This document shows positions 39,738-63,621 of a stretch of DNA of 64,000 nt, piece after piece. The position numbers and the translations under genes are program-made. The notes under the pieces are model-generated. The model was not told where the DNA came from and made no database searches. It was given only the letters and a program-made list of their open reading frames with translations. Within the stretch, counting starts at the first letter, position 1; the number at the start of each line of letters is the position of its first letter. Where the stretch lies: NCBI RefSeq assembly GCF_053078305.1, contig NZ_CP166879.1; one strand, given 5' to 3'.

Positions 39738-40211
39738 TTATTTAAAATTAAAGCCATCCGGATGGTTTTCCAGGCTGCCGGTCAACGCCGCGAACAGCAC
39801 CGTTTTACCATCAATCGAAAGCGCATCGTTCACATTCAACCAGGTGAGTTTCTCTTGCGACGTTTTCTCATCAATAGTCGAGAACAGCCCCGTCATCTGA
39901 TTAGATTTCTCGGACCACATCACAGCGATACGTTGCGAGCCACAGTCATGCGGTTTGCACGCGCTCATCACCTGATACGTCTCTTCTCCCAATGTCACGG
40001 TTTGTGCAGGGGTATAAGTACCGCCTTTCATCACCCAGGCAGGCAGCTTATGCCCTTGCACCATCTGATTAAATGCAGCTTTGGTGGTTTCGCCCTTTGC
40101 AAGGCTGCTAATGGTTAAATCATCCTGCGCCATTGCACTGGTGGCGATGACCAGTGCGGCGACTGTCGTTATTGCCTTAAACATCATTCCTCCCGAGCTT
40201 ATCCTGCCCAT
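39738..40211 (-). CDS. ivy: Inhibitor of vertebrate lysozyme
   Basis: 157 aa ORF with signal peptide, MGRISSGGMMFKAITTVAALVIATSAMAQ... Confidence 0.9.
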   Translation of the reverse strand: MGRISSGGMMFKAITTVAALVIATSAMAQDDLTISSLAKGETTKAAFNQMVQGHKLPAWVMKGGTYTPAQTVTLGEETYQVMSACKPHDCGSQRIAVMWSEKSNQMTGLFSTIDEKTSQEKLTWLNVNDALSIDGKTVLFAALTGSLENHPDGFNFK

Positions 40212-40364
40212 GTAATTAACCTCCTAAAGCCTGGCGATAACACGATAATTTGCAAATCAGATATTTCCAATATCAGCATTTGTTATCAATTTATTCTGCG
40301 CTAAGGCAACTGCCTGATAAGGTGTTAAAGTTATAAAACCCTTCGCATAAAGGAGTTGTACACC

Positions 40365-41135
40365 GTGCCTGGTTTGAAGATTACGCTTTTGCAGCAACCA
40401 CTGGTGTGGATGGATGGTCCTGCCAACCTGCGTCATTTTGATCGTCAACTGGAAGGTATTACCGGGCGCGATGTGATCGTTCTACCGGAGATGTTTACCA
40501 GCGGCTTTGCCATGGAAGCGGCAGCTTCGTCGCTAGCGCAAGATGACGTAGTGAACTGGATGACAGCTAAAGCGCAGCAGTGCAATGCGCTGATTGCAGG
40601 CAGTGTTGCATTACAAACGGAGTCTGGTTCGGTTAACCGCTTTTTGCTGGTTGAGCCGGGCGGCACGGTACATTTTTATGACAAGCGTCATCTGTTCCGA
40701 ATGGCAGATGAGCATCTGCATTATAAAGCGGGCAATGCGCGAGTGATTGTGGAATGGCGCGGCTGGCGTATTTTGCCGCTGGTGTGCTACGACTTACGTT
40801 TTCCGGTGTGGTCGCGCAATCTCAACGATTACGACCTCGCCCTGTACGTCGCCAACTGGCCTGCTCCGCGCTCTCTGCACTGGCAGGCATTGCTGACGGC
40901 CCGCGCGATTGAGAATCAGGCGTATGTGGCGGGATGTAATCGCGTCGGCAGCGATGGCAACGGCTGCCATTATCGCGGTGACAGCCGGGTGATTAATCCA
41001 CAGGGCGAGATTATCGCTACTGCCGACGCGCATCAGGCAACGCGCATTGATGCGGAGCTGTCGATGATGGCATTGCGGGAATATAGAGAAAAGTTTCCGG
41101 CATGGCAGGATGCGGATGAGTTTAGGTTACGGTGA
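40365..41135 (+). CDS. yafV: Nitrilase-family omega-amidase YafV
   Basis: GTG start at VPGLKITLLQQPLVWMDG (256 aa); carbon-nitrogen hydrolase fold. Confidence 0.88.
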   Translation: MPGLKITLLQQPLVWMDGPANLRHFDRQLEGITGRDVIVLPEMFTSGFAMEAAASSLAQDDVVNWMTAKAQQCNALIAGSVALQTESGSVNRFLLVEPGGTVHFYDKRHLFRMADEHLHYKAGNARVIVEWRGWRILPLVCYDLRFPVWSRNLNDYDLALYVANWPAPRSLHWQALLTARAIENQAYVAGCNRVGSDGNGCHYRGDSRVINPQGEIIATADAHQATRIDAELSMMALREYREKFPAWQDADEFRLR

Positions 41136-41244
41136 GTAGGTGCTGTGTTTAGGGCGGGGAATTCAGAAAGGGATGTTTAGTATGCTGAGCGAGAGTTAAA
41201 TAATAAAAAGCTGGGAAGATTTAATAATCATCCCGGTTTTTATT

Positions 41245-41508
41245 TTATGATTTTTTATTAATTTCACTTATCCATATTTTAAATTCCTTTACTAAATAAG
41301 GATTTTCATTCTTTGATAATATTTCTTGTAGATATCGACAAGTCTCTTTATTTCCCATATCAAGTACGTATAAAGCAATCGAATCAACGATATCATTCTC
41401 AAAAGAATCAATAGCAGCACAATATATGTTTATTAAATCTCGCAAACCATCATTAACATCTACTTCCAGCTTATTTAAAGCTTCATTATATTGATGTCGG
41501 ATACTCAT
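41245..41508 (-). CDS. Hypothetical small protein (87 aa)
   Basis: AT-rich ORF at the edge of the acquired T6SS-distal block. Confidence 0.35.
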   Translation of the reverse strand: MSIRHQYNEALNKLEVDVNDGLRDLINIYCAAIDSFENDIVDSIALYVLDMGNKETCRYLQEILSKNENPYLVKEFKIWISEINKKS

Positions 41509-41556
41509 AAAACCTCACATTAGTTATATAGGAGCCGCCCCGAAAACAGGGCAAGA

Positions 41557-42693
41557 TTACGAAAGCCCGCACCCCGCAAGGACTGACGCGAGGTAGTTTC
41601 TGTCCATGGCTGCTTTTCTCATCTTACGTCTTAGCCCTGCCTTGAATACCTTATCATTCGTCAAAATATTAATAGTGATATGCCTTATCCCTGAAAATAA
41701 TTCTGCTGCATTTCCTCTTCTTATTCTGCAGTCGTCTTCATTCATTATCACGTCCAGGCGCCAGTGCAGCTTATTTTCCACGTGCCAGTGATTCCGGATC
41801 GCTGTGGCGAACTTCTCTGCAGTTAAATCAGCAGAGCTGATATAATATCTGACCGTCATTTCGGGCTCTTTCTTTTGTTCTGCTATTATTGACCGAAAGG
41901 AGACTGCCATGCATAATTTTTTTAGTCCTTTCCATTCAAACGTGAAATCAATAAGTTCATCAGGGACATCGCAAACAATATGAAGACGGGTTTCTTCTCT
42001 GCCGTGACTCTTTTCACTTATTTCGTAACTGTCATGCTTTGGATTATTTAATTCTTTCAGCGGGAATTTTTCCTCAAAGGCTTTATTTAGTCGCCCCTGA
42101 TTTCCCTTTACAGCGAATAAATAATCACCTCCCTGTTTTTGTATCTTTTCTGCAATATCTTTCTGGCAACCCATCGCATCAGTTGTGATGATTTTTCCTT
42201 TAATATCCATCATGTTAAGAAGTTCAGGAATAGCTGTAATCTCATTGGATTTCTCATCCGTCTTGATCTGCCCGAGGACCAGACTGTGCATAGTTGAGAA
42301 CGCACTAATGACATGAATCGCTCCCCTGCAGCGACTCTTGTCATAAGAGTGCCGGAGCGTTGTTCCATCAATTGCAATAACGTCTTTATCATTTGAGGAA
42401 TGGCGGTCACGCATTCAGTTAATAAAGCACTCGTGAAATTTTGTAGGACTGATACAGGATACAACTCTGGCAATGGTATCGTGAACAGGAATACCATTTT
42501 CAAAATCACCATATTGCTTCAAAAAATCGAGATATGTTTCACCAAAATCCTCTATATCTTCCCAACCCTCTGCACCAGAAATGACGGCACAAATAGTCAA
42601 CAGTAGAATATCTGACAATTTATGTTCCACTTTCCAGGCTTGTCTGTAATCGGGGATAATAGAAATATGTTCCATCAACTTTTTAAGTTCCAT
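41557..42693 (-). pseudogene. ISAs1-family (H-repeat-associated) transposase with in-frame TGA
   Basis: ORFs 42415..42693 (92 aa) and 41557..42414 (285 aa) are in the same frame, separated only by TGA at 42417-42415 (...[16 protein letters not shown]...). Confidence 0.7.
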
Positions 42694-43031
42694 TTTGTTC
42701 TCCTTATTTATGCAAGGAGTATTTGATCATGTATAAGCAATAAAAAACAGCTTCAGGTAATGAGGAATATCTCAATTTTTAAACATAAAATGCTAATTAT
42801 TTAGTACAAAAAGTGTACTTCTGATGATCTTTCCCTGACCTGTAACCGCTTTGATTCCAAACGAATATCTTTTAATGACATAATAAATTTATATTCATTC
42901 AGTCTTCAGGTAAACAAAATAGACACTATAAATAATAGTTATCATGAAAATTCATAAACACCATCTATTCTATGAGATGATTATCAGTAATTATGGAAAC
43001 ATCAGCAACATGCTTATGAGATGGTATACAT

Positions 43032-43526
43032 TCACTGAGATATTTCCGTTTCTGTGATTAATACCGGATAAGCATTTAATTGCAAAAGCTGCATCAGATT
43101 ATCGCAGACAACAGGCACCAATAATAATCCATCAGCCTGCTTATTTAATAGTTCCATTCGGTCTGCTGATGCAACATTCACAACCAAACCGAGGGCATTT
43201 AGCGATTTAAACTTCTCCAGGTGTTCACTCATCCATCGCAGAGAAAAAGGATCATCGCCAATTATAAAAACAGGTCCCCAGCCAGTTAATAACTGACGTT
43301 TCGTTACAGTACCGGGATGAAGTTGAGTACATATTACAGGAAATACCCCCTGTCGTGATGGCTCCGATGACGAATGTAATTCAGAAACATTTCCTGTTGT
43401 CAACGAAAGATTAATACCCATGAGTAATCGCGAAACGCTCTCACTTTCCTGGTTAGTTCGCCAAACAAGGGTTGCACTAGTCTGAAAAGAAAAAAATATT
43501 ATTATATATAAACATAGTTTTAACAT
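43032..43526 (-). CDS. Hypothetical secreted protein (164 aa)
   Basis: ORF with N-terminal hydrophobic signal-like segment. Confidence 0.35.
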   Translation of the reverse strand: MLKLCLYIIIFFSFQTSATLVWRTNQESESVSRLLMGINLSLTTGNVSELHSSSEPSRQGVFPVICTQLHPGTVTKRQLLTGWGPVFIIGDDPFSLRWMSEHLEKFKSLNALGLVVNVASADRMELLNKQADGLLLVPVVCDNLMQLLQLNAYPVLITETEISQ

Positions 43527-43564
43527 AATACAATCAGTCCATTTAATTCATGCTATAAAACAAC

Positions 43565-44116
43565 TCATTGATTAATTGGCAAGGTACCATCCCGGTTAAA
43601 ATCATCAAATATTTTATCAATTTCCTTTGCGGTTTCTATATATATAATCTCCTTTGTCCTTGCATTAAATATAGCCCAAGCCTCGGGGTTGGACGTCCCA
43701 CCAAATCTTACAAAAAAATTTGACTTCATGTTTTTATATAAATTAATTTCTGGAAAAGGATCTTCTCCAATATTAGAAATATTAGGGGGTGTAAATTTAT
43801 GTCTTTCAGAAAACTCTTTTGGTAAGATAGTTTCACTGCCATTTATGGTATTTATCCAGAAACTACTACCATTATATTCCAGCATTAAGCGCAGTTTTAA
43901 CGGTATTTTATCTTGTTCTTTAACGACAACTAATACCTTTTTAACAACCTGCTGTGCCGACGGTCCTATTGTATTCCAAAGAGATAGTAAACCACTTTTA
44001 CTATACACAACTTCCTGAATAAAATAAATATTCGTTTTATCACCTTCGATAACATCTTCCATTAATCCCTCCAGACACAACCAAATTACATGGCAAGAGT
44101 ATAATTCTAATGCCAC
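43565..44116 (-). CDS. Hypothetical protein (183 aa), possible orphan immunity protein
   Basis: ORF only; location in the effector/immunity tail. Confidence 0.35.
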   Translation of the reverse strand: MALELYSCHVIWLCLEGLMEDVIEGDKTNIYFIQEVVYSKSGLLSLWNTIGPSAQQVVKKVLVVVKEQDKIPLKLRLMLEYNGSSFWINTINGSETILPKEFSERHKFTPPNISNIGEDPFPEINLYKNMKSNFFVRFGGTSNPEAWAIFNARTKEIIYIETAKEIDKIFDDFNRDGTLPINQ

Positions 44117-44486
44117 TCACCAGATTGAATACTTGACTTAATATTATCACTTGATCAAACAATCATAATGAATTTCATCTTTATTGTCTTTTTAAAAGTG
44201 ATAGCTAAGCTCGTTTTATTCATTAAACCAGATGATGCAATACTTTGGATCAAATAAATATTCCCACTAAGATGAATGTTCATTTTGCTTTCATAAGCCA
44301 TACGCTTGCCCTGCTGCAAGGACTAATCGAAAGTGGAACATTATTTCACGCAGTCATTTACATACGATGGCAAACCGTTTTTATTTGATTGCATCTCCCT
44401 AATCAAATACATATTTATTTCTCTACTACTAACTAGTTCAGCCAGTTATCACATCACATTTGAGCATTATAATTCCCCAAAAACAT

Positions 44487-44900
44487 TCATCTATTAATGG
44501 CGAATGAAATAGATAATGAATTAAAATAATCATCTAGTAAAAATTGTTTGATACCGGGATCATAAGCCCGCATAACAGAGTGTTTTGTTTCCAATAATGG
44601 GATAATAGTATTCACTCGAGGAACTACAGCACCTAAAAATATAATATCATTATTTTTTTGGACTAATAAAACAGGAAGAGTATCAAGATCTACCTCTGAA
44701 ACCATATCAGAATGCCGTTCAATATCCATCCAGATAAAGAAATCGTTTGGATATTTTTCCGATAATGCAATTAATGGATTTTTCCAGTCATTACAATTAT
44801 TGCACCAATCCGCACACAAACAAACAACTAGTTTATTATCATTATTAGCGGAAATAAACTCCCCAATCTGCTGGATATTATCCTCAGGGTAATATATCAT
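44487..44900 (-). CDS. Thioredoxin-like protein with C-x2-C-x-C motif
   Basis: 137 aa; CADWCNNCNDWK motif. Confidence 0.45.
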   Translation of the reverse strand: MIYYPEDNIQQIGEFISANNDNKLVVCLCADWCNNCNDWKNPLIALSEKYPNDFFIWMDIERHSDMVSEVDLDTLPVLLVQKNNDIIFLGAVVPRVNTIIPLLETKHSVMRAYDPGIKQFLLDDYFNSLSISFAINR

Positions 44901-44911
44901 TTCTTTTCCTT

Positions 44912-46147
44912 TTAATAATTAAGCAAATTATCCTTTGGTGAGGTATTCTTGTCCAAATGGAAAAGATGCCATGAAGCAATCCAGCGAACGAGTTGGCTTC
45001 CGTCAGAAAAATTAGTATTACACCAAGATGCAGTCACTGATTTCCCCAGGAACAGTCTTTCCTCATTACGATACTGTTGACACATCGATGTAACTTTATG
45101 AATATCAGGCATTCCTATGCCGGTTCCAAACACATTTAACCGAGAGGTAATCTCAGGCAACTTTTCATCCTTTGCCGGTAATAAATATTCCTTATCATCT
45201 ATATCAATGCCAGTTATCAGACTTACAGCAACAAACGCAATACGAGAAAGCTCTTCTTTTTCCATTAATGAAAGTAATAGAGGTAGAGTTTTTGTATTTG
45301 CATAATGGGCATAAAAAATGATTTGTAAATACTCAGGTAAACCAGAAATAAATGCAAAAGGGTAAGTCAGTTCAGAACAACATTGCCCAAGAAGTCGAAC
45401 TAACATCTCAGTTTGCTGGTTTTTCCTGATACCTTCAATGCCTCTAAGAGGCGGCAGGGTTAAATAATCATCAATCAACAGACATAATGGATTAATCATC
45501 ATTGACTTATCTGATGAAAGCCAACATGCAGCACTAACTGCTGAAAATCTGACTGATAATTCATTGCTACCAAAATATACCGTTAACGCAGGAAGATAGC
45601 TCTGTAATCCAAGTTTGCGAATATAATCCAGCACAGCTACCTTTTCTTGTATATTTCCGTTATCTAGTTTTTTTATCAAAAAATCTTCTGATAAGTGTAA
45701 TTTGCTCTGAGAACAAATATTTAATGCTATCTGAACCTCGGAAGGTATAGAGGAAAGTAAGAATTCATTAACAGTACCATAAACATGTTCTTTAGCTGAA
45801 TGTGATAACGCAGAGACATACCCATTCAACGTTGTATCTGCATATTTAGATACATACGACCAGGTTGCTTTCATCCAGGCAGGATTCTGACACTGATTCG
45901 CCAGAAAACCGCAAACAAACGCTTCTCCCTGAGAGTGCCAGCGTCTCAGTGCCGCATAGCTCTCCTCCCATCCATCATCACCAGCAACATGTAATCCCTC
46001 CAGATTAGCATCAATATATTGATTAAATTGCCTGAGATCGGCGCTTTTAACTAATGGCGAAAATCTGCTTTCTTCTTTCTGAAGCCAGTAAAATGCCGCA
46101 TTCGCGGCATGCTGACGAATAATCGGTTGTATTACCTGATGATTCAT
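44912..46147 (-). CDS. Hypothetical protein (about 411 aa from an internal start; track ORF extends to 46246)
   Basis: Long ORF downstream of the GHH effector; start at MNHQVIQP would abut the upstream stop. Confidence 0.4.
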   Translation of the reverse strand: MNHQVIQPIIRQHAANAAFYWLQKEESRFSPLVKSADLRQFNQYIDANLEGLHVAGDDGWEESYAALRRWHSQGEAFVCGFLANQCQNPAWMKATWSYVSKYADTTLNGYVSALSHSAKEHVYGTVNEFLLSSIPSEVQIALNICSQSKLHLSEDFLIKKLDNGNIQEKVAVLDYIRKLGLQSYLPALTVYFGSNELSVRFSAVSAACWLSSDKSMMINPLCLLIDDYLTLPPLRGIEGIRKNQQTEMLVRLLGQCCSELTYPFAFISGLPEYLQIIFYAHYANTKTLPLLLSLMEKEELSRIAFVAVSLITGIDIDDKEYLLPAKDEKLPEITSRLNVFGTGIGMPDIHKVTSMCQQYRNEERLFLGKSVTASWCNTNFSDGSQLVRWIASWHLFHLDKNTSPKDNLLNY

Positions 46148-46148
46148 A

Positions 46149-47177
46149 CTAGTCTTCTGCCTCATCATCAGTCTCATCATCTGACTGCCATTCAACAGAA
46201 TTAATGAGTAAATGCCATTCCTGTCCGTCGTGCCATGCTGCACCATACATTCCGGCCATTAGCATCACACCATCACCCACTGATAAATGCCCTACCGCTA
46301 CAGCTATTTCAGAAGGAAGATCCACAGGAATTAATGTATCACCATCCAGACACCATAGACCGTAATCAGATGTACACCACACTTTTCCGGCATGCCAGAC
46401 TATATCTTCGAAGGGAAGACTATAACCACCCGCAGAGACTTTTTCCCATTTATTCCCACGGCCTTTAAATAATATACCAGATTGACCACCAATGTAGACA
46501 TAACCATCCCCTGCACAACACACTGTTTCTAGATAGATGTTTGAGGGAAAATTAATTTGCTCCCATTCTGCTCCAGAAAAATGCCAGACATTTCCCTTAC
46601 CGCCGACTACATACAAATCATCATAGGAAAAACCATCTATATCTCTTAGTTTAAATTCATCGCCAAATCTACCTTTTTCTTTTGAGTAATCAAAAACCGG
46701 GAGATTCAAACAGAGTGACTGCCAGTCATTAACTCCGTCTCTGTATCCCACAGAGTTATTGTACCCAACAATATACAGTCTTCCTGAAATATTTTTAATT
46801 TTCGTTATTATATTTCTTAGAGGACCGTCAATTCCGAAAGGAATTTTTTTCTCTCTGCTATCATATTTACAACTACGGGAATAAACATATCCCTCATCAT
46901 CAACACAAACAACTTCGTCATAGCTATTATATGATGCACTACCTATATATAACTGCCCCATGTTTTTAAGTGGCTGAAGTGATATACAATCGTCTGGGCT
47001 ACCATCTAAATAGATCCCGACTTCACCTTTAGTTACTGTATTTTCATCAATAACACTTGCTTTTCGACTCTCTTTAATATTACGAACAGAAAAATGGAAA
47101 AAATCCTTATTTCTTACAGTACAATCCTTAATATACCATTTTTTAAAAATTGCAATGTTCTTATCAGTAATTTTCAT
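46149..47177 (-). CDS. Candidate immunity protein with repeated G/W-rich beta-propeller-like units
   Basis: Directly downstream of the GHH-nuclease effector; repeated ...G.....W... units; start taken at MKITDKNIAIFKKW. Confidence 0.4.
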   Translation of the reverse strand: MKITDKNIAIFKKWYIKDCTVRNKDFFHFSVRNIKESRKASVIDENTVTKGEVGIYLDGSPDDCISLQPLKNMGQLYIGSASYNSYDEVVCVDDEGYVYSRSCKYDSREKKIPFGIDGPLRNIITKIKNISGRLYIVGYNNSVGYRDGVNDWQSLCLNLPVFDYSKEKGRFGDEFKLRDIDGFSYDDLYVVGGKGNVWHFSGAEWEQINFPSNIYLETVCCAGDGYVYIGGQSGILFKGRGNKWEKVSAGGYSLPFEDIVWHAGKVWCTSDYGLWCLDGDTLIPVDLPSEIAVAVGHLSVGDGVMLMAGMYGAAWHDGQEWHLLINSVEWQSDDETDDEAED

Positions 47178-47184
47178 ATAAATA

Positions 47185-48828
47185 TTACCTCTTATTACCT
47201 GTAGGTGTTTCAGTATTCTGAGAATCAACTTCATCTTCAGTAAATGCTTTTCCAGCTACCGCTGGCATATCATCATCGCAATTCTTATAATAATTATCCA
47301 GTTGTTTTCTAAGGCAGGCTCTGCTGCATCTTGATTCCGGGAATGTTCGTTCAAATCCATCCAGGGCAATTTCTTTGGCATCTTCGTAATCAATTTTATC
47401 TTTATCGCTGAACCAGCCACTTTTCTTATAAGCTTTGATATCTTTGATCATCTCATCATGCATTTTGCCATGCGTTCCGTTTCCATTATTTGTGCCCTCT
47501 ACACAAACTGTCGGTGCCCCGCCTTTCGAATAACCACTGCAATGTCCTTTAGCCATTTCATCAGGAATAAGATGGTGGCCTGTCTGTCCGGGACAGCACC
47601 CTTTTCCAGTTTCGATACTCTTTTTGGCTCCGGTCTTATTATAATCAACGAGAAGGCATCGTCTTGCACGCGTACAGGGATTTATTCTCGCCAGCGCCCC
47701 CATTCCTGTTGCCATCATTTGAGATGGCGTCATATTTTTTAGCGTATTTTCCAGTTCAGCTTTGGCCTGTTTGACTAAAGATAAAATATCTTTTATCTCA
47801 TCTAATTTTTTATACGCTTCAATACCTAACTTGGCTGTATCATAAGCTGTACCAATTGCATCACAGACGTTCCATATTGTTGCAATTGTCTCGGTTACAA
47901 CTGCTCCAACGCCAGCAGCCGTAGCACCTATCGTACCCACGGCCCACCTTCCAGCCGCGTGTGCTGCTAGTTTTTCTGCTTTATGCAGAGCAGCAGTTTG
48001 TGCTTTATCAATAATTTCTTGTTTTAGTTGCTCAAGCATTGGCTCTATTAGTGAAGCCACTTTTTTATTAAAATCCTCCGTCAGTTCTTTCAATAATTTG
48101 TTATACTCCTCCAGGCCAAAACGTGGCTTAATCCACAAACCAGTACAATGAGAAAAAATCCATTCATTCTCCGGAGTTTTTAGTTTAGCGTATGTATTTC
48201 TGACTTTATCATCCAGCGTTTCCAGTTTCCCACCAATTTCTTTACCCATTAATTTCATGAAGTTTTTATTTTTTACATGATTCCTTCTGTTTTCCTCTTT
48301 CTTTTTTTCATCTTCATCATCATTTTTGTTATCTTCATCCGGTTTACATGCCTTCCTTATCCGATCTTCTTCCTTTTTACACTGTACAGGCATATCAAGA
48401 GTATCCTTATATGTGCCTGTAATAGTATTTCCTGGCTCCGAACCATGATTGTGCGTCATTAAATCTTCATGGCGTGCCACACACTTCCCTTCGAATTTTA
48501 CATTTGGCGACCATGATTTAAAGTAGGCTTTTCCTTTAATGACGCCGGTAATTACACCTTTGGGTTGGGATTGTGTAGCGGGTTCATCTCCGGTACTGGT
48601 TGAAAAAAAGGAAATATCTTCTTTAGCCACCATCGAATTGCATATGAATACGGTTATGGTTCCGTCCTTCATCGTTGAGGCATATGCAGTATTTGGATAA
48701 GGTACCACTATCGGGCCAGCCGGAGGAGAAGGCGGTGTCCAGCACGGATCGGGAAACACCGCTTTTGACACGCCGTCCGATGCCTTGGAGCTTGCCTCCC
48801 GGCTATTGATATAAACTTGAGTTTCCAT
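47185..48828 (-). CDS. T6SS effector: N-terminal DUF4150 (PAAR-like) domain, C-terminal HNH/EndoVII-fold GHH nuclease toxin domain
   Basis: 547 aa; N-terminal ...DPCWTPPSPPAGPIVVPYPNTAYAS...; Lys/Glu/Asp-rich linker; C-terminal CCPGQTGHHLIPDE. Confidence 0.7.
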   Translation of the reverse strand: METQVYINSREASSKASDGVSKAVFPDPCWTPPSPPAGPIVVPYPNTAYASTMKDGTITVFICNSMVAKEDISFFSTSTGDEPATQSQPKGVITGVIKGKAYFKSWSPNVKFEGKCVARHEDLMTHNHGSEPGNTITGTYKDTLDMPVQCKKEEDRIRKACKPDEDNKNDDEDEKKKEENRRNHVKNKNFMKLMGKEIGGKLETLDDKVRNTYAKLKTPENEWIFSHCTGLWIKPRFGLEEYNKLLKELTEDFNKKVASLIEPMLEQLKQEIIDKAQTAALHKAEKLAAHAAGRWAVGTIGATAAGVGAVVTETIATIWNVCDAIGTAYDTAKLGIEAYKKLDEIKDILSLVKQAKAELENTLKNMTPSQMMATGMGALARINPCTRARRCLLVDYNKTGAKKSIETGKGCCPGQTGHHLIPDEMAKGHCSGYSKGGAPTVCVEGTNNGNGTHGKMHDEMIKDIKAYKKSGWFSDKDKIDYEDAKEIALDGFERTFPESRCSRACLRKQLDNYYKNCDDDMPAVAGKAFTEDEVDSQNTETPTGNKR

Positions 48829-52877: not shown

Positions 52878-53420
52878 TCAGTTTACCTGCACAGACCCAC
52901 CTTTTAACCTGTGTGTTGCCTGCGCCTGACTGTCAATATAAAGCGCGCGTATCTGAAGCAGTCCATCCGCCGATAAAACAATTTTTGACTCGCCGCACTG
53001 GAGCACTAATTCTTGTTTCGCTGTCAAAACAACTCGCTCTGTATTTAGTTCGTCTTCAGTACATTTTTTCGTCTCTGAATGATATCTTTCTGTTAAATTC
53101 TCCGGAAGTATTCCGGTCACTACCGGATGAGAATAATTGCCAGAGAGAAACTGCACAGTGCATAATCGTCCGTTATACTCCGTAGTTACAGTTCCCAGAC
53201 CCAAAGCTGCAACAGGTTTATCTTCATGAGGACACTGAATCAATATTTCTCCAGAGTCTTTGACACTGACAATTCTGCCGACAACCAACACAGGGATATC
53301 ACTGACATGCGCCTGGGATTTACTAGCCTGATGAGATAAAATATTTTCCAGCAAATGTGTTGTACTGGTCAGTTCCTCTTCTGGCTGTGGGACGTATATA
53401 TCATGCAGTTCCTTTATCAT
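52878..53420 (-). CDS. Hypothetical protein (180 aa) translationally coupled to vgrG
   Basis: Start overlaps the vgrG stop at 53420. Confidence 0.4.
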   Translation of the reverse strand: MIKELHDIYVPQPEEELTSTTHLLENILSHQASKSQAHVSDIPVLVVGRIVSVKDSGEILIQCPHEDKPVAALGLGTVTTEYNGRLCTVQFLSGNYSHPVVTGILPENLTERYHSETKKCTEDELNTERVVLTAKQELVLQCGESKIVLSADGLLQIRALYIDSQAQATHRLKGGSVQVN

Positions 53421-55408
53421 TAGTTCTCCAGAATTTTCTTCCCTTTCATATTCATATCACCATCAGCTTTATAAAACTGATCACCTGTTGTTCCCAACGA
53501 CAATTCATGTCCATTTATAGTGATGTAGCCATCTTTATCCATGCGCAAAGTACTCTTACCACATACAAACTCGATGGAATCGCCTACTGTCACTGTAAGA
53601 GTTTCCCCTACAGTAACAGACTGAGATTTATCCACAGCCTCGGTATCATTCCCTGTTACCTTACTATCCTGATCATTACCTACGCTCTTGCTACGATTGT
53701 TCGTGACAGTCAGAGATTGATCATTTCCTACGCTTACATTTTGATCGTGAGTTACAGTGACGGTCTGATCATGTCCCCCGGCATTCTCCTTACCCACCGT
53801 CACCGTCTGGCCCAGCCCAACGGTAATACTCTGGTTGTTACCGATGGTTTCGGTATGGTCCACTTTCACATCAGTAGTGCGGTTGTTCAGCACTTCCGTA
53901 TCCATGTTCTTCTGTGCATGGATATAGACCTGTTCACCGCCCGTGGCGTCTTCAAACCGCAGCTCGTTAAATCCGCTTCCTTTATAGGTCTTCGACCGTA
54001 TCGTCATCTGCGTCTTCGTCCCCGGCAGACTCCCCGGCGAACGGTTGTCCTCATGGTAGGTCCGCCCCATGATTATCGGCTGGTCCGGGTCGCCGTTCAG
54101 GAAGTCTACAATCACTTCCTGGCCGATGCGCGGTATCGCCAGGTTACCGAACCCCGGCCCCGCCCACGCCTGCGACACCCTCACCCAGCATGAACTCGCC
54201 TCCGTCATCCCGTGATAACGGTCCCAGTGAAACTTCACCCGTACCCGGCCATGTTCATCGCAGAAGATTTCCTCTCCCGCAGGCCCGGTGACAATGGCAC
54301 TCTGCGGGCCGTCCACCTTCGGTTTGCTTTGCACCCGTGGACGCCACGTCCGGTCCGCCGGTATCACCTCTAACTGATTGCCCAGCGTGGTTCCTCTCCC
54401 CTGGCTGCCGTGCAGCGCCTGCGGCTGGCTTCCTGACAGTATGCTCTGTACCACCTGCCATTCACGGTTCAGCATCTTCTGCGGATGCCCCGTCAGCGTA
54501 AACCGCGTTCCCGGCCACAGCCGCGGCGAATTACTCTGCCCTGTGGCCTTTTCCGCATCACTGCGCAGGCTGTCCATCTGGTACAACGTGAAATCCTTGC
54601 CGTGCTGTTCATCCTTGAACCTTCCCGGATAATCAAATATTTCATACTGCGCCAGCTGTCCGTTCAGGTTCTCACCCTGCTGCTCATACATCCCCGGCCA
54701 GTCCGGCACCTTAAACGTGTAATCCTGGCTCTGCACCGACGACGGGCGGACATGCGCCTCATAACGGAACATACTGACACACTCTGTCTCCGCTCCTGCC
54801 GATGTGTCCGGGTTAAACGGAAGCTCTCCCGCCTGTGACAGCCCCGCCACATCGTCGCACAGCGTCAGCTTCTGCTCCGGACTGTCCGCCGCAAACCGCT
54901 CAAAGAAGAAAATCCCCTCCTCCGCCCACAGCCGCGCCAGAAACGCCAGGTCGCTTTCCCCGTACTGCACACAGAACTCCCGCGCCGGATGGTCCTCATA
55001 AAACAGCGGCGTCCACTCCGTGACGCCGTTCTCGTTCAGTAACGTGGCCGATATCGTCCGGATATCCTGCTGCTGGAAGATACGGAAGTTCTGCCGCAGC
55101 CCACACCGCCATAACGGCGGCTGGATACACAGGTGATAACGCATCTGCCAGCCGTTATTCTCCTGCATCCCAAACCCCGCCACCACGCCGGTGACATAAC
55201 GCAGCGGGATGACGCCCTGCCAGATGGTCAGCGTCGCCTTCTTCTCCAGCAGCATCTCCGCCGTCTGCATAAAAGAGTCGCTGGCAACATCCACACTCAT
55301 CACAAACGGATATGACCCGCCCTGGATTAACCGGAAGCTCACCACTGCAAAGGTGTCCGGCTCCTGGCCGTCAACCTCCAGCGTAAAGCGCAGACCTTTT
55401 AAGGACAT
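53420..55408 (-). CDS. vgrG: T6SS spike protein VgrG (paralog 2)
   Basis: 662 aa, MSLKGLRFTLEVDGQEPDTFAVVSFRL...; gp27/gp5-like body and C-terminal beta-helix repeats (TVGxxQSxTV). Confidence 0.9.
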   Translation of the reverse strand: MSLKGLRFTLEVDGQEPDTFAVVSFRLIQGGSYPFVMSVDVASDSFMQTAEMLLEKKATLTIWQGVIPLRYVTGVVAGFGMQENNGWQMRYHLCIQPPLWRCGLRQNFRIFQQQDIRTISATLLNENGVTEWTPLFYEDHPAREFCVQYGESDLAFLARLWAEEGIFFFERFAADSPEQKLTLCDDVAGLSQAGELPFNPDTSAGAETECVSMFRYEAHVRPSSVQSQDYTFKVPDWPGMYEQQGENLNGQLAQYEIFDYPGRFKDEQHGKDFTLYQMDSLRSDAEKATGQSNSPRLWPGTRFTLTGHPQKMLNREWQVVQSILSGSQPQALHGSQGRGTTLGNQLEVIPADRTWRPRVQSKPKVDGPQSAIVTGPAGEEIFCDEHGRVRVKFHWDRYHGMTEASSCWVRVSQAWAGPGFGNLAIPRIGQEVIVDFLNGDPDQPIIMGRTYHEDNRSPGSLPGTKTQMTIRSKTYKGSGFNELRFEDATGGEQVYIHAQKNMDTEVLNNRTTDVKVDHTETIGNNQSITVGLGQTVTVGKENAGGHDQTVTVTHDQNVSVGNDQSLTVTNNRSKSVGNDQDSKVTGNDTEAVDKSQSVTVGETLTVTVGDSIEFVCGKSTLRMDKDGYITINGHELSLGTTGDQFYKADGDMNMKGKKILEN

Positions 55409-55769: not shown

Positions 55770-56600
55770 TTAAGGTGTTAATTGCCCAGAGTTATCACCC
55801 TCATAAGATTCTTTTGGTACTGAATGTAACTGCACTTTCCCATATCGACAAACAATCCACCAGATAAAAGATGATATAATGGAGAACGGAAATATAAAAA
55901 CCACATAAAGAGGCCATAGATATACTTTCATCGTTCTTTCACCTTCATCACAAGGCCAGGAACAAAATGGCCATGGCTTATAATGCTCTATGATCTCGGC
56001 AGGCGTCAGGTAAATTTTTTTTTGGCGGAAGTCGTCCCAGTCATACTTTTCAGGTATTCGTAGGTTATCCGAACCTTTATGTATAAAATCTTTTATATAC
56101 TCAACAATAGGCATAAAATTATAATGTCCGTCAAATTCAATTTTATGCTCAACTTTCTGACCAAATCGATCATGCGAATAGAGTAATAAATAAGTTGTTT
56201 TAAGACCTCCGAGGAAATCCAAATCATTTATATTACAAATATATTCTTCATCATTCAAATAAAAATATATTCTTTTTGTTTTTCTATTTAAAACGATATC
56301 AGAATTTCGTTTTATGTTATGTATAAAGCCACGAGTCAAAAACATAAAAAACATTGGGAGTAACATCATCAGCAAGCTATCTATAAGCTTCCTAAAGATG
56401 CTAACTGAATCGGTTGTAGAAAACATATGATATATAATTATTATTGCTGCAACAGACCATGTGAATGAAAAAAAAAGCGTCATAACTCCATATGTCACGC
56501 TATCATTTACAGTAGCTGTTCTTAACGTAAGGCAATGTCGACTTAATGAAATAAACTGCAATCTCATGTCATAACAATTTACTGTTTTTTTGTTCATCAC
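55770..56600 (-). CDS. Putative membrane immunity protein for the upstream effector
   Basis: 276 aa with hydrophobic helices (VMTLFFSFTWSVAAIIIIYHMF, LLMMLLPMFFMFLT); directly downstream of the large effector. Confidence 0.4.
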   Translation of the reverse strand: MMNKKTVNCYDMRLQFISLSRHCLTLRTATVNDSVTYGVMTLFFSFTWSVAAIIIIYHMFSTTDSVSIFRKLIDSLLMMLLPMFFMFLTRGFIHNIKRNSDIVLNRKTKRIYFYLNDEEYICNINDLDFLGGLKTTYLLLYSHDRFGQKVEHKIEFDGHYNFMPIVEYIKDFIHKGSDNLRIPEKYDWDDFRQKKIYLTPAEIIEHYKPWPFCSWPCDEGERTMKVYLWPLYVVFIFPFSIISSFIWWIVCRYGKVQLHSVPKESYEGDNSGQLTP

Positions 56601-56621
56601 ATTCTCGCCATTCTTAATTAT

Positions 56622-59576
56622 TCAAAATGATGGTGGCATACTTTTATTAACCACACCCATATATTGATTAAAATCAAATTCCAGTTTATACTCACAAAGA
56701 ATAGATACATCGTTCATAAAGCCCGTGTTTGGCCTGTATCTAAAACTAAGAGCAACGTCTTCAACATGATGTTTATCCACCTGCTTGCTAAAACGAAGTA
56801 AAACCCCCCCGTTTTCTGGAAACATTCTTTCAATAGTAAAGCCACTAGTTATTTCTCTGATATCACTAACATCAGGTACAAAATCTGGAAGATAAAGAAC
56901 AAACTGTGCCGGCCCGATATAGCAAGTAGAAATGGTATCTCCAACTAATTTCCATTGAGTATAAACATCTGGATGTGTGAGATAACTTGCGAGAGTAGAG
57001 TCAACTAATATAGGTTTATAGCGAACCTTAAAATAATCAACAATAGCTTCATTAATATTTTGAAATTGTTTCATATCTTCGTCAGTGCTGTTTTCATCCC
57101 TGATAAACGCACCAAAAATAGTATGATTCACCCAACGTTCAAATGAGGTATGATTATCTTCATCAGCTTCCAGTCCTAACCATATACCAACAAGAATTAG
57201 CACTAATCCGACGACAACTATCCATCCCACAATAGGTATAGCTCCTGCTGAAAGCGCCCCAGTAACAGCACTGGGTAAAAAACTCGCAGTGACAGAAGGA
57301 AATGCAACCATTAAAGACCCCATTGCACCTGCAATTGCTGATTCAAAACGTAAACCTTTACCATCCGTATCTGATACCCACCATTTAGACAAATCAGAAA
57401 ATAAAGAAAAACCGATTGCAGCAATCCCCAAATACTTACCGAACGCTGCTGACGCAATTTTTTTTAAAATCCATCTTTTGTAATATTCACCAGCCCATAC
57501 AACTCCTTTATCAATCGAATTTCTTTTCATGAAATTTTCAACAGATACTAACAAAGCATTACACCCAGCCAAAGCGCCTGAAAGTGCAGCAATGAAATTT
57601 AATACTTTTCCACATGATATTTTATCATCTGTTATTTCTTTTTTTAGATCAACATATGCAGAAAATAAATAAATCATACCAAATAGTAATAAGCCAGCGG
57701 ATGCGGCAGTTACGCTGACAGAAGTAGATAATTTACCAGAAACTAATTTTTCGGTTGCTCTTGCACTCTGTAAATCTTGCTCCACTACTACAATCAAATC
57801 TCTTTTCCCTCGCCCACTAAAATAAGTAATTTTAGCTTTATCCAGTTCTACCATACCGCTTTCAACCAAAATCTTAAACTGACTGGTAACAGGATTACGT
57901 TCAAATAAATCATTGGTAATAGTATATCGTGCCCTTAATATACCCAATAATTGTCTAATATCCCCACCATCTGCAGCGGCATTTATCTTAGCCAATGCAG
58001 AACCTTTTAATTCAGGGCGACCTTTTATATTTTTACTTTTTAACAAATAAGCAACAATATTAGTCGTAAGAAGGTCAGTTCCAGCGGTAGCTCGCATAAA
58101 AACATCTTTCTTTGATATTTCCTGAATCACGTTATCAGCAGCCCCAAGCCATCCACCTACAGAATTTGCATCTTTTCCAAAAGGGCTATAGGCCAATAAT
58201 GCCTTATAGACAGGACTGTTTGTATCATTAAGCCAAACGTTTAATAATGCTGTTCGAGTATCTTTATCCTCGCGTCCTGGAATAGGATTACCAACACCAT
58301 TAATCATCATAGCAATAGACATTTCCAAACTATATGCTGAAATTTTTACATTTCGGTCATAAAGCATTAATGCACTGGCTACTGATAGACGGTTATTTTG
58401 ACAAGTTTCCTCTGCACTGCTTAGCCAAGCACAATGATCGATTGTAGCTAACTCTGCCTGTCGCAGCACGATTTCTGCATTCTCTTGAATGATTTTCTTT
58501 TCTTCTAAAAAAGCTAAGAATTTCTCCTGATTTATACGTTTAGCAAACCTAGCACCGCTAGCTGAACGAGCTTCATCTATTAACTCATAGAAATGACAGA
58601 CATCGCGATCGCCATCAACTAATGAAGTATCCCCTTTACTTGCACTGAGACTAATTAACGTATTGAATATGAGCTGGCATATAATATCTTCTTCATAAAA
58701 TCTCTTACTTTTAATGTGTAGTTTACTAACATCTAATCGCATAGCTTTAGGTAATATGTAATCCTCTGATTCAGATTTTATATCATTTATCTGATGTCTA
58801 TATAATTCTGCTATTGCAGATACATCAATAGCAATCCCTTCGGCATCTAGCAGGGCAATTACAGCTGGAACTTTAGGTTGATAATTTGGAAAATATGATT
58901 TTAATGATTTCAATTCATTGACATTCGAAACAAAAGGCTCTTCCTCGCTCCATCGCATATCCATTTTTTTTTCTTCAGGTTTATACTCCTCTACCCACTG
59001 TTCCAGAGCATCTATCGGAAGAATATTTTTTTGTATAGAATAATCATGGTTGCAATTAACTAACTCTGCTACATCCACAGCCTGCATAAACCGTTGGCGA
59101 GATGCCAGGTTAGATAAGAGATCATTTACCCTTGTTTGAGTCCACAGATGGGAACTATAACCAATCCATACCTCTGTTGCATCTGTTTCAATCCAGACGT
59201 TTGGCATCTGCTTACCACTTGCATAGGCATCACGCGAGTTATATTGCTCAAGATATTGAATTTGCAACTCCTGAAACAATCCATTCCCTTGATGTTCGTG
59301 TATAATTAACTTTGTATATTTTGGTGATGACAGATAAGTATAAACATATCCTACACGAAGAGCACGCAGTGTATATTTAGAGCAATTCAGCGTAGCAACA
59401 CAGGTAAACCCTTCTTCAAGATTATATTCACAACCTTCCCATGAAAATTTTTGTGAATCATCAAGACATTTAGGAATAATGCCATAGCGTATCGGAAGTA
59501 GAGGAATACGTCCTATCTCTTGTGTGCATGGTTTTGCGGATATAATATTTTCATTCGCCATAAATACACTCTCCAA
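56622..59576 (-). CDS. Large putative T6SS membrane-targeting (pore-forming, VasX-like architecture) effector
   Basis: 984 aa; C-terminal third has several long hydrophobic helices (e.g. GWIVVVGLVLILVGIWLGL); sits between an adaptor-like gene and a membrane immunity candidate. Confidence 0.45.
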   Translation of the reverse strand: MESVFMANENIISAKPCTQEIGRIPLLPIRYGIIPKCLDDSQKFSWEGCEYNLEEGFTCVATLNCSKYTLRALRVGYVYTYLSSPKYTKLIIHEHQGNGLFQELQIQYLEQYNSRDAYASGKQMPNVWIETDATEVWIGYSSHLWTQTRVNDLLSNLASRQRFMQAVDVAELVNCNHDYSIQKNILPIDALEQWVEEYKPEEKKMDMRWSEEEPFVSNVNELKSLKSYFPNYQPKVPAVIALLDAEGIAIDVSAIAELYRHQINDIKSESEDYILPKAMRLDVSKLHIKSKRFYEEDIICQLIFNTLISLSASKGDTSLVDGDRDVCHFYELIDEARSASGARFAKRINQEKFLAFLEEKKIIQENAEIVLRQAELATIDHCAWLSSAEETCQNNRLSVASALMLYDRNVKISAYSLEMSIAMMINGVGNPIPGREDKDTRTALLNVWLNDTNSPVYKALLAYSPFGKDANSVGGWLGAADNVIQEISKKDVFMRATAGTDLLTTNIVAYLLKSKNIKGRPELKGSALAKINAAADGGDIRQLLGILRARYTITNDLFERNPVTSQFKILVESGMVELDKAKITYFSGRGKRDLIVVVEQDLQSARATEKLVSGKLSTSVSVTAASAGLLLFGMIYLFSAYVDLKKEITDDKISCGKVLNFIAALSGALAGCNALLVSVENFMKRNSIDKGVVWAGEYYKRWILKKIASAAFGKYLGIAAIGFSLFSDLSKWWVSDTDGKGLRFESAIAGAMGSLMVAFPSVTASFLPSAVTGALSAGAIPIVGWIVVVGLVLILVGIWLGLEADEDNHTSFERWVNHTIFGAFIRDENSTDEDMKQFQNINEAIVDYFKVRYKPILVDSTLASYLTHPDVYTQWKLVGDTISTCYIGPAQFVLYLPDFVPDVSDIREITSGFTIERMFPENGGVLLRFSKQVDKHHVEDVALSFRYRPNTGFMNDVSILCEYKLEFDFNQYMGVVNKSMPPSF

Positions 59577-60765
59577 TCACCACCCCAACTTGCTTTTTTA
59601 TCATAGGCGAGGGGGAATTTAATTCTAATACTTCCCATGCTTGTTCCGGTGAGCTTTGACAAACCAGTAGAAAATGCTCTCGGATGTGGTACAAAGAGAG
59701 GTTGTCTTTCATAGAGGGAATAAAATTTAATACTACATCCACTGCATCACCAAAATTCTTCCCTTGGTGTTTTTGTAATGTTAGCCAATCTCTCACTAGT
59801 AACTCATTAAAATAATTGCTATTAAGAAAACTTTTTTTGGAGGTTCTTATTTTCATTATTGCATCAAGACGATTTTCTGGTGAAATAGTAACTTCAGCTA
59901 GGATTGAGCAATATAATTCTATCTGCTCATCAGATTCAGATGAATCATCCAAAAAAACACTAACTATTGTTGTTATCATGTTGTATTTATAAATACCCAG
60001 CAACCTAAATATATCATGTATTTTTTGACATTGTTCCGTTCGTCGAGTTAAAGTTTTTTTTGCATGATTTATTAACTCTTCCAATGACAACTGAAATCTA
60101 TATTCTTCCAGAATTGAAATATATTTAAGTTCTCTGTGTGTTAGTTTGAAAAACGACAAATCCTTTAAACTAGGCTTATCCACAACTTGATTATATAAGT
60201 ACCAAGAAACCTTGTTATATAAATTTTCGCACCAGATAATTGAGTTTATACTACCAAGTAAACGCTGTCTTTTACTTGCGATCAGACATCCAATAATAAG
60301 ACTTAAATTATTCGGATACCAGTTTAAATGTATGACATTTGACTTGTGAGTATAGAGTGTTGAGAATTTCGAAAGATGCCAGCAAATTTCCTTTAATGAT
60401 GAAGAACTTATAATTATCAATCCACCGTTACACTTCGCCCATTGTGAAACAAAATGCCTTACAATATCATGACTATGGCTTACATTTATTAATAGCGGTC
60501 CTTTCTCTCGTTTGTAATCATATTTGGTATCTTCCCATAACCATTGATAATAAATAAATGGCTCTATTTCTTTTAGCTGTGTCAGTAATCCGAGATTTGG
60601 TGGTATTGTATTATCATCAGGTTGTATTACCTTCCTAGTACAGCGCTCAATGTTTATAGGATGTAATAATAAGTAAATAGCATCATCATCATTTTGGATT
60701 GATTGAAGGTCAAAATCATCCGTACTTACTTTTATATTATGTCGGGCCAAAAGCGTGGCAAACAT
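59551..60765 (-). CDS. Putative T6SS adaptor/chaperone (DUF4123-like by position)
   Basis: 404 aa ORF; start overlaps the vgrG stop; vgrG-adaptor-effector-immunity order. Confidence 0.4.
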   Translation of the reverse strand: MFATLLARHNIKVSTDDFDLQSIQNDDDAIYLLLHPINIERCTRKVIQPDDNTIPPNLGLLTQLKEIEPFIYYQWLWEDTKYDYKREKGPLLINVSHSHDIVRHFVSQWAKCNGGLIIISSSSLKEICWHLSKFSTLYTHKSNVIHLNWYPNNLSLIIGCLIASKRQRLLGSINSIIWCENLYNKVSWYLYNQVVDKPSLKDLSFFKLTHRELKYISILEEYRFQLSLEELINHAKKTLTRRTEQCQKIHDIFRLLGIYKYNMITTIVSVFLDDSSESDEQIELYCSILAEVTISPENRLDAIMKIRTSKKSFLNSNYFNELLVRDWLTLQKHQGKNFGDAVDVVLNFIPSMKDNLSLYHIREHFLLVCQSSPEQAWEVLELNSPSPMIKKQVGVVIGECIYGE

Positions 60766-63102: not shown

Positions 63103-63621
63103 TTATGCTTCCAGCGGTGCACGCCAGTCATCGGCACCAGAAGTACCGGATTTGATGTGCTCCCACTCAACCTTACGGTATGCCAGTGATACTGCGAGCA
63201 ATTGCGTAAACTCACGCTGTGCAGGGTCCTGGCAGTGCGGCATGTGCAGGTTCATGTCCACAATCGTCGCGTCAGTAAGACGTGTGGTGAAGTAGTGCTC
63301 CTGCTTGCCTTCAACTGAAGTACGCCACCAGTGCAGCTCCACTTTCGGCAGCATTTCACCGGAGGCCAGCGCGTTGTACAGCAGCGGAACGGCTTTGTTC
63401 AGCGCCACGGTGAAAATGAACGGTTTGTGCGCGCGCTGCCCGGAAGGTTGACCAGACTGTGGATCGGTTGGAACAGTAACGTTATGCAGAAACTCCTGCA
63501 CCAGCATTTCATCTTCGTGTCCCTGCACGTAGATATTGCCGACAGAATCTGCGGTGAAAGCACCGGCAGTGATGTTCCCCTGGGTCTGACCTGTAATTGA
63601 AATGTAACATGGGGTTGGCAT
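63103..63621 (-). CDS. hcp: T6SS tube protein Hcp
   Basis: 172 aa, MPTPCYISITGQTQGNITAGAFTADS... Confidence 0.9.
   Translation of the reverse strand: MPTPCYISITGQTQGNITAGAFTADSVGNIYVQGHEDEMLVQEFLHNVTVPTDPQSGQPSGQRAHKPFIFTVALNKAVPLLYNALASGEMLPKVELHWWRTSVEGKQEHYFTTRLTDATIVDMNLHMPHCQDPAQREFTQLLAVSLAYRKVEWEHIKSGTSGADDWRAPLEA

Follow-up and report, generated by a model that had tools for sequence, protein, structure and literature searches.

What are three small genes doing between yafV and the effector tail of a type VI secretion system (T6SS) island? The DNA in which this question arises, a 64,000-nucleotide stretch of contig NZ_CP166879.1 (the window), belongs to an Escherichia coli chromosome. 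Over positions 40000-46000, it agrees completely (100% identity) with strain ET350, and this segment was found in only 11 of 5,426 complete genomes. In the annotated ET350 copy, the gene order is fadE - ivy - yafV, followed by the tail of the T6SS-1 island on the minus strand. Three open reading frames (ORFs A, B, and C), all on the minus strand, are located between yafV and the T6SS effector tail, around an insertion sequence (IS) of the ISAs1 family with a transposase pseudogene. The original prediction, made from the sequence alone, described these frames (87, 164, and 183 aa) as unannotatable genes and proposed that they could be orphan immunity genes left by earlier effector cassettes. 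The analysis presented here suggests a mosaic of two unrelated modules with the ISAs1 element as their joint, in which ORF A is the orphan immunity gene of an Rhs toxin and ORFs C and B form a conserved pair that could act as effector and immunity protein of the T6SS. Taken as a whole, this explanation is slightly favored.

The three frames were found in the ORF list exactly as predicted (Table 1), ORF C extending there from 43565 to a GTG at 44116. Its start is most likely the ATG at 44062, methionine 19 of the 183-aa frame, which is common to all homologues and to the annotation by PGAP and shortens the protein to 165 aa. Nei-Gojobori estimates of the ratio of nonsynonymous to synonymous substitutions (dN/dS) against divergent homologues gave 0.15-0.28 for ORF A, 0.27-0.59 for ORF B, and 0.16-0.31 for ORF C, with dS up to ~1.5 for the latter. 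Since these values are well below 1, all three ORFs are under purifying selection and are maintained as proteins. The condition named at the outset for refuting the prediction, ORFs that are neither conserved nor coding, therefore does not apply. The GC content falls from ~56% in yafV to 29-41% across the region of the three ORFs, a composition in which long frames arise easily, and two of the three have no family match, as might be expected of chance frames in AT-rich island DNA. Against this stand the conservation of all three, a dN/dS of 0.15-0.59 at dS up to 1.5, homologues in several genera, and confident AlphaFold2 (AF2) models. A chance origin is already refuted by the dN/dS values and by the homologues in other genera.

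ORFs C and B are inherited together. The gene next after ORF C encodes a DUF2859 protein, the family of ORF B, at every close-relative locus: strain 135, E. whittamii, and the contigs L005 and L006. In strain 135, the two genes have been kept together at 68% (ORF C) and 75% (ORF B) amino acid identity, and on the metagenome contig L005 and on L006, they follow a vgrG-DUF4123-effector-immunity-PAAR module. Of the 5,426 complete genomes, 542 contain the common variant of the pair at a coverage of at least 80%, and 11 contain the variant of the window; the pair is thus carried by at least 550 complete E. coli genomes, roughly one in ten, including ST131-type strains. Its position beside yafV is constant, while the vgrG-linked module upstream differs between strains and consists of PAAR-like/GHH2 in the window and of Cpe1-Cpi1, Tle1 with DUF3304, or DUF4123 with a 523-aa protein elsewhere. 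The upstream module of PA45B includes the same immunity protein accession as the Cpe1-Cpi1 strain and a near-identical PAAR-like effector accession. ORFs B and C are therefore not independent relics of earlier cassettes, as had been proposed; they form one conserved two-gene unit that persists while the effector cassettes upstream change, and this unit is the sole module to stay constant where the T6SS-1 island ends in variable ones. The pair is read as complete and not as two leftovers, and it can be considered a functional conserved unit with high confidence. No vgrG remnant of the kind present in L004 and L005 was found upstream of ORF C in the window, where homology to L004 begins only at 44255. 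The pair has also decayed in places. In ATCC 25922, ORF C is gone and the DUF2859 gene is truncated by an IS630-family element, and the 14.5 kb examined around yafV contain no annotated T6SS gene; in another strain, the pair is cut by IS1 and a large insertion.

ORF C encodes a protein of 19.0 kDa with an isoelectric point of 5.3, without cysteine and without a signal peptide or hydrophobic N-terminus. No relevant match was obtained in Pfam or NCBIfam (E<=0.1), and none in PADLOC or the PDB sequences. The AF2 model has a mean per-residue confidence (pLDDT) of 86 and a predicted template modeling score (pTM) of 0.81; it consists mainly of beta-strands with one C-terminal helix, no transmembrane (TM) helices are predicted, and no fold match was found in the PDB or in a viral structure library. 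A word-indexed homology search with ORFs C and B recovered only relatives at the Escherichia level, the close relatives of ORF C being those of Escherichia and one metagenome lineage. An exhaustive profile search extended the family to 43 relatives, many of them of ~190 aa, at ~21-38% identity and with a conserved insertion of ~33 residues, and a profile search of contigs with an alignment of six ORF C sequences found eight loci. None of the relatives has a family annotation, their name being always "hypothetical protein", and ten distant relatives and two membrane partners gave no family match save spurious ones on two long repeat-like proteins. ORF C founds an unnamed family.

The label "unannotatable" does not apply to ORF B, which is a member of the DUF2859/PFL_4695 family in Pfam (DUF2859; E 8e-29, 100.7 bits against a cut-off of 25) and in NCBIfam (TIGR03765, PFL_4695 family integrating conjugative element protein; E 4e-34, 116.6 bits against a cut-off of 59.75). 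An N-terminal Sec signal peptide (MLKLCLYIIIFFSFQTSA) comprises one hydrophobic segment, residues 4-22, and ends in TSA. In the AF2 model, the C-terminal ~105 residues adopt an alpha/beta fold with pLDDT above 90, and the ~45 residues following the signal peptide, with pLDDT below 50, are probably disordered. The ORF B profile had no match among PDB sequences, and a thioredoxin fold with a CxxC active site was not found in this protein. The full 164-aa frame including the signal peptide is conserved in the homologues; the PGAP call in ET350 (L001 15033-15422), a 129-aa protein without signal peptide, is too short. In the T6SS-linked DUF2859 clade of Escherichia, two cysteines are conserved, C66 and C141 of the precursor, which are lacking in the homologues from integrating conjugative elements (ICEs; L028-L035). 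The two cysteines of ORF B may form a periplasmic disulfide.

The pair is always annotated as "hypothetical protein" and "integrating conjugative element protein". The latter RefSeq product name is given to ORF B although no ICE is present, and it could mislead automated surveys of ICEs and T6SSs. Taken literally, it would make ORF B, together with ORF C, the remnant of an ICE. ORF B does score above the curated DUF2859 and TIGR03765 cut-offs, and the family is a standard part of the conjugation modules of mating-pair formation class G (MPF_G), of the ICEclc/PAPI-1 type. ORF B matches both family profiles, and like the MPF_G proteins it has a signal peptide, an alpha/beta domain at the C-terminus, and the conserved motifs "[G]-[DA]-D-x-x-S...YP[VA]LIT". 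However, the plasmid and ICE homologues, which are located in such modules, are only ~27-44% identical to ORF B, and their surroundings are different. In all six MPF_G loci (L028, L029, L032-L035), the DUF2859 gene comes directly after a soluble lytic transglycosylase (SLT) gene, often overlapping it, and before traD; the SLT was annotated in five of the six, its place in the remaining one being taken by an unnamed 193-aa protein, and one locus has a transposase inserted between the two genes. The MPF_G order TIGR03759 - SLT transglycosylase - DUF2859 - traD is absent from the window and from the other Escherichia loci. ORF B has no SLT, traD, or ICE nearby and differs from the MPF_G proteins also in its two conserved cysteines, and its upstream partner is ORF C and not a lytic transglycosylase. 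The ORF C profile showed no similarity to the ICE transglycosylase (hhalign probability 0.7%), and the pair is fixed at the end of a T6SS island in hundreds of genomes. An origin as ICE remnant is thus very improbable. The fixed pairing of SLT and DUF2859 in conjugation modules suggests that the two proteins act jointly; the literature yielded no study of this pairing, nor any functional study under DUF2859, PFL_4695, the RefSeq accessions, or yafV with T6SS. As a matter of speculation, the pairing with a lytic transglycosylase hints at a cell-wall connection.

The genomic contexts of the ORF C family bear on the function of the pair. The Escherichia copies are at the tail of the T6SS island, and the L005 copy follows a vgrG module. 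Among the distant relatives, one begins 15 bp after hcp and is accompanied by a convergent gene for a 145-aa membrane protein, and another lies directly after tssB-tssC, as the first of several effector- or immunity-like genes that encode small exported proteins and an amidase of Tae type. Other relatives form stand-alone modules in Morganella, Erwinia, Yersinia, Pantoea, and metagenomes. Their partners, as far as translated, are proteins of 95-157 aa with about four hydrophobic, TM-like segments, and some of these modules add a DUF805 membrane protein. As to localization, ORF C lacks a Sec signal, ORF B has a signal-like segment, and the partners of the relatives are predicted to carry about four hydrophobic segments.

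Two of these neighborhoods hold further genes. In the metagenomic T6SS cluster (L016 8001-13100), the genes between tssC and impE are one resembling ORF C and others for a 4-TM protein, three small proteins with signal peptides, a 126-aa Tae-like amidase and its exported partner, and a 275-aa protein whose hydrophobic tail is rich in glycine; together they resemble a dense islet of effector and immunity genes. In Pantoea agglomerans (L043 4663-5906), a Tlde1-domain gene, an 86-aa gene, and hcp form an islet 3.5 kb from an ORF C-like module, in one strain only.

On contextual evidence, the pair can be read as a T6SS effector-immunity pair, in which ORF C would be a candidate Hcp-type cargo effector and ORF B its periplasmic immunity protein, because a protein without signal peptide and of a size fitting the Hcp lumen has an obligatory envelope neighbor and occurs repeatedly, though not universally, adjacent to hcp, vgrG, or tss genes. 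A mass of 19 kDa is within the size range of Hcp-carried effectors such as Tse1-4 and Tae. For secretion, toxicity, immunity, target, and Hcp dependence alike, we infer the following course. ORF C would be loaded as a cargo effector, by its size most likely inside the Hcp tube, and would act on the envelope of the recipient, in the periplasm or at the inner membrane. ORF B, exported by the Sec pathway, would neutralize incoming or self-delivered ORF C in the periplasm. The chances of this reading are about evenly balanced, and the pair is a candidate addition to the T6SS effector-immunity pairs, composed of one unnamed family and one DUF family with a misleading product name. A catalogue of such pairs (PMC11148199) has no DUF2859 entry in its available supplements.

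Several observations weigh against an effector-immunity pair. Most ORF C relatives examined are not beside T6SS genes. The partner belongs to DUF2859 in the Escherichia clade and to roughly 4-TM proteins in all other clades, and such a switch of partner family within one effector family is unusual, though not unprecedented. Conserved residues of ORF C are few, mostly glycine, proline, and aromatic residues in addition to E17 and D101, and no toxin, enzyme, or T6SS-marker domain was detectable in it. When ORF C was joined to mature ORF B through a linker and modeled with AF2 on four paired rows, both domains came out confidently but not their mutual placement (pTM 0.52), and binding is not supported by this model.

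Some of these observations would suit a two-gene module related to the envelope but not to the T6SS, of a toxin-antitoxin-like, phage-defense, or stress type, that is merely located in the island. At most ORF C-family loci examined there is no T6SS gene within 6-9 kb, several include the DUF805 gene as a third, membrane-protein gene, a T6SS marker motif was not found, and the low score of the fused model points the same way. The three T6SS linkages (the tail of the Escherichia vgrG island, the hcp-adjacent copy, and the copy within a T6SS core cluster) are independent of each other, however, and PADLOC gave no match. The pair has also decayed in ATCC 25922, in which the surroundings of yafV lack T6SS genes. 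A mostly orphan distribution is moreover equally found for Ssp4, an experimentally proven Hcp cargo effector (PMC12669606). A module foreign to the T6SS is accordingly unlikely.

The proposal that all three genes are orphan immunity genes of earlier cassettes would make ORF C a cytoplasmic and ORF B a periplasmic immunity protein, each for a lost toxin. The genes are at the distal end of an effector tail and beside an IS, where orphan immunity genes accumulate; the immunity arrays of V. cholerae are an example (PMC5361080). ORF B carries a signal peptide, a common trait of immunity proteins, ORF C has no recognizable toxin domain, and for ORF A the proposal is demonstrably true. For the other two genes, the evidence runs the other way. 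C and B have been inherited as a unit in four divergent lineages while the cassettes upstream turned over, and neither gene is beside a candidate cognate toxin in any lineage. The relatives of ORF C are the first gene of stand-alone two-gene modules without a toxin nearby, so that every copy would have to be an orphan, and one relative right after hcp occupies the position of an effector. The general form of the proposal is rather unlikely. What survives of it for ORF B is its immunity-like character, with a Sec signal peptide and a periplasmic location, and not its orphan status; the position and context of ORF C are those of an effector and not of an immunity protein.

Known effectors offer partial parallels to the proposed effector-immunity pair. 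In Serratia marcescens, Ssp4 is an Hcp-dependent, pore-forming cargo effector and Sip4 its four-TM inner-membrane immunity protein (PMC12669606). Most ssp4 genes lie at a distance from T6SS loci, some lie beside T6SS genes, and each has a small downstream partner (PMC12669606). The C-B family resembles this system in the succession of a small effector-like protein without signal peptide and a small envelope partner, and in being mostly remote from T6SS loci and occasionally adjacent to them. Unlike Ssp4, with its 13 helices, ORF C is rich in beta-strands and has no predicted TM helices, and unlike Sip4, the Escherichia partner is a soluble periplasmic DUF2859 protein. ORF C was rejected as an Ssp4 homologue, Ssp4 being all-helical according to its description (PMC12669606). 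With the Tae/Tai, Tse1-Tsi1, and Tge/Tgi pairs, ORFs C and B share a size of ~150-170 aa, a signal peptide only on the immunity protein, and adjacent, co-oriented genes. A Tae-type papain-like amidase was rejected for ORF C, which has no cysteine and a single, non-conserved histidine. ORF C also differs from the Tae, Tse1, and Tge effectors in the absence of lysozyme or SLT similarity.

If the two genes are an effector-immunity pair, E. coli, Morganella, Pantoea, Erwinia, Yersinia, and other bacteria would gain a widespread antibacterial effector family. The misleading product name in RefSeq would be corrected, and a first functional handle would be provided on DUF2859, a conserved, uncharacterized component of ICEclc/PAPI-1-type conjugation systems. 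A bolder version holds that ORF C represents an undescribed family of small, Hcp-loaded, envelope-attacking T6SS effectors with a fold absent among solved structures, and that the immunity protein of Escherichia was recruited from the conjugation machinery; this is quite unlikely. Were it true, DUF2859 proteins in general might be periplasmic binders or inhibitors of a cell-wall-acting partner, and ORF C, with its conserved E17 and D101, might be a new kind of cell-wall-targeting toxin.

ORF A is of a different nature. It encodes an acidic protein (isoelectric point 4.7) and has its own GAGG ribosome-binding site. Homologues with 73-97% identity are present in Escherichia, Providencia, Brenneria, Citrobacter, Pantoea, and other Enterobacteriaceae, and the region was found at a coverage of at least 80% in 30 complete E. 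coli genomes. In E. coli A25, the homologue is at the rhsE locus, right after a degenerate Rhs fragment. In Providencia stuartii (L010), it begins 12 bp after an orphan ORF of 303 aa that consists of the end of an Rhs core (TIGR03696, "...DPLGL", corresponding to the core-end motif DPxGL) and a C-terminal toxin domain (Rhs-CT; L010 5555-5989) of ~145 aa. Other loci with homologues are arrays of orphan toxin/immunity modules, e.g., AHH-Imm43, ribonuclease-barstar, and TNT. A tblastn search with the ~145-aa Rhs-CT detected it directly upstream of the ORF A homologue in nine of nine other loci (over its full length in five, as the C-terminal half in four). These loci come from Providencia, E. coli, and further Enterobacteriaceae, and ~12 bp separate the toxin gene from the start of the homologue, which is co-oriented with it. 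Nowhere in the window did the same search find the toxin.

What is left of the toxin gene is a stump of 27 nt, which became apparent when the DNA was aligned with the loci of Providencia, E. coli A25, and one further enterobacterium. It reads FSGRLLYN* where the intact copies have MSPGRFPYN*. The stump adjoins the IS terminus at 41547, the spacer with the GAGG site is kept between stump and ORF A, and homology to the A25 locus (L002) stops at the IS end, at 41548. Because the same toxin precedes the homologues in all nine loci and is absent from the window except for the stump, ORF A can be regarded, with fairly high confidence, as an orphaned immunity gene (RhsI-type) that was cognate to one specific Rhs C-terminal toxin. 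For ORF A, the original prediction is borne out by the attached toxin stump; for the pair, it does not hold as then formulated. An IS-mediated rearrangement would have removed the toxin gene and left its last 27 nt, the immunity gene, and the ribosome-binding site of the latter. The protein would still protect the cell from neighbors delivering the cognate Rhs toxin.

The lack of a curated family counts against this assignment. The ORF A family does not reach the cut-offs of any curated immunity profile (Pfam Imm*, SUKH, MafI, etc.), and the name "MafI family immunity", given by one source to the homologue P0017, was not reproduced by profile search. No relevant Pfam or NCBIfam match at E<=0.1 was obtained for ORF A or for 15 family members, and neither PADLOC nor a profile search of PDB sequences gave a match for ORF A; the Rhs-CT toxin has no Pfam domain. 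The search with immunity-family profiles proposed at the outset matched neither ORF A nor ORF C.

Orphan Rhs-CT/RhsI modules downstream of rhs genes, which in E. coli and other Enterobacterales are accompanied by H-repeat (ISAs1) elements, have the same organization, with an immunity gene following the core-end motif and a variable C-terminal toxin, in arrays, and at classical rhs loci the ISAs1/H-repeat element adjoins as it does beside ORF A. In contrast to such modules, the window retains no more than the immunity gene and a 27-nt remnant of the toxin gene, ORF A is at the junction of the T6SS-1 island and yafV and not at an rhs locus, and neither the toxin nor ORF A is in any curated family. 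ORF A is in itself an ordinary, routine orphan immunity gene. Still, it illustrates neatly how H-repeat elements deprive toxin-immunity modules of their toxins while the protection remains. On the opposite strand, toxin genes of the SymE family are found repeatedly beside homologues of ORF A and beside further orphan Rhs modules, in E. coli, Providencia, and other Enterobacteriaceae (L002 7828-8028; L007-L010 at about 7286-7544; L012-L014).

The joint between the two modules is the IS. It is an ISEc1-like H-repeat element, and its transposase frame is split into parts of 92 and 285 aa by the stop that reads "CFIN*MRD" in the window and "CFINWMRD" in intact copies; PGAP likewise marks an "internal stop" in ET350. 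No target-site duplication was found, the flanks on the minus strand being TTTTCGGGGC and AGCGGTTACA, and the junction therefore arose by IS-mediated rearrangement and not by simple insertion. Comparison with related loci by BLAST resolves the region into the yafV core up to ~41159, the ORF A module at 41172-41548, the IS at 41547-42840, the C-B module at 43032-44103, and, from 44255, a block that matches at 96% identity a PAAR-toxin block found in another strain at its rhsE locus. Elsewhere (strains of L003, L020, L031), ISAs1 copies or fragments border the C-B pair on one side or on both, and H-repeat elements seem to serve as the substrates for the recombination that reshuffles modules at the end of the island.

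Table 1. Features of the yafV-T6SS junction and of the adjacent island in the window
Feature	Position	Strand	Size	Description
yafV	40356-41135	+		ET350 annotation
ORF A	41245..41508	-	87 aa	probable orphan immunity gene of an Rhs C-terminal toxin; from ORF list, family, context, and dN/dS
Rhs-CT toxin stump	41520..41546	-	27 nt	last 8 codons and stop
ISAs1-family element (ISEc1-like, H-repeat)	41547..42840	-	1294 bp	BLAST, 94-95% identity to ISEc1 copies over exactly this span
Transposase gene of the IS	41557-42693			inactivated by TGG-to-TGA at 42415-42417
ORF B	43032..43526	-	164 aa	DUF2859/PFL_4695 family; candidate periplasmic immunity protein
ORF C	43565..44062	-	165 aa	start at M19 of the 183-aa frame; candidate small Hcp-type T6SS cargo effector
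PAAR-like/Tox-GHH2	47185-48828			second of two PAAR-like toxins; T6SS effector tail
vgrG	53420-55408			T6SS effector tail
Hcp	63103-63621			T6SS-1 island

In addition to the genes listed in Table 1, the T6SS-1 island includes a DUF4123/VasX_N-like toxin module, DUF6484, DUF2169, and the first of the two PAAR-like toxins. A scan for promoters and terminators gave no more sites than in shuffled sequence, and an Rfam scan gave no match. After the PAAR-like/Tox-GHH2 nuclease toxin, a three-gene block on the minus strand (44487-47234) encodes proteins of 361 aa (no Pfam match) and 444 aa (weak TIGR02270) and a 137-aa, redox-active thioredoxin-like protein with a WCNNC motif. This block moves as a unit; it is found at 96% identity at the rhsE locus of strain 2017-02-2CC and in a diverged version in E. 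whittamii. Upstream, at 55770-62882 on the minus strand, a second vgrG-type module contains a 705-aa ORF, probably VgrG, a weak DUF4123 match, a 984-aa toxin with a VasX_N domain, and a 276-aa protein without family match that is probably the immunity protein of that toxin.

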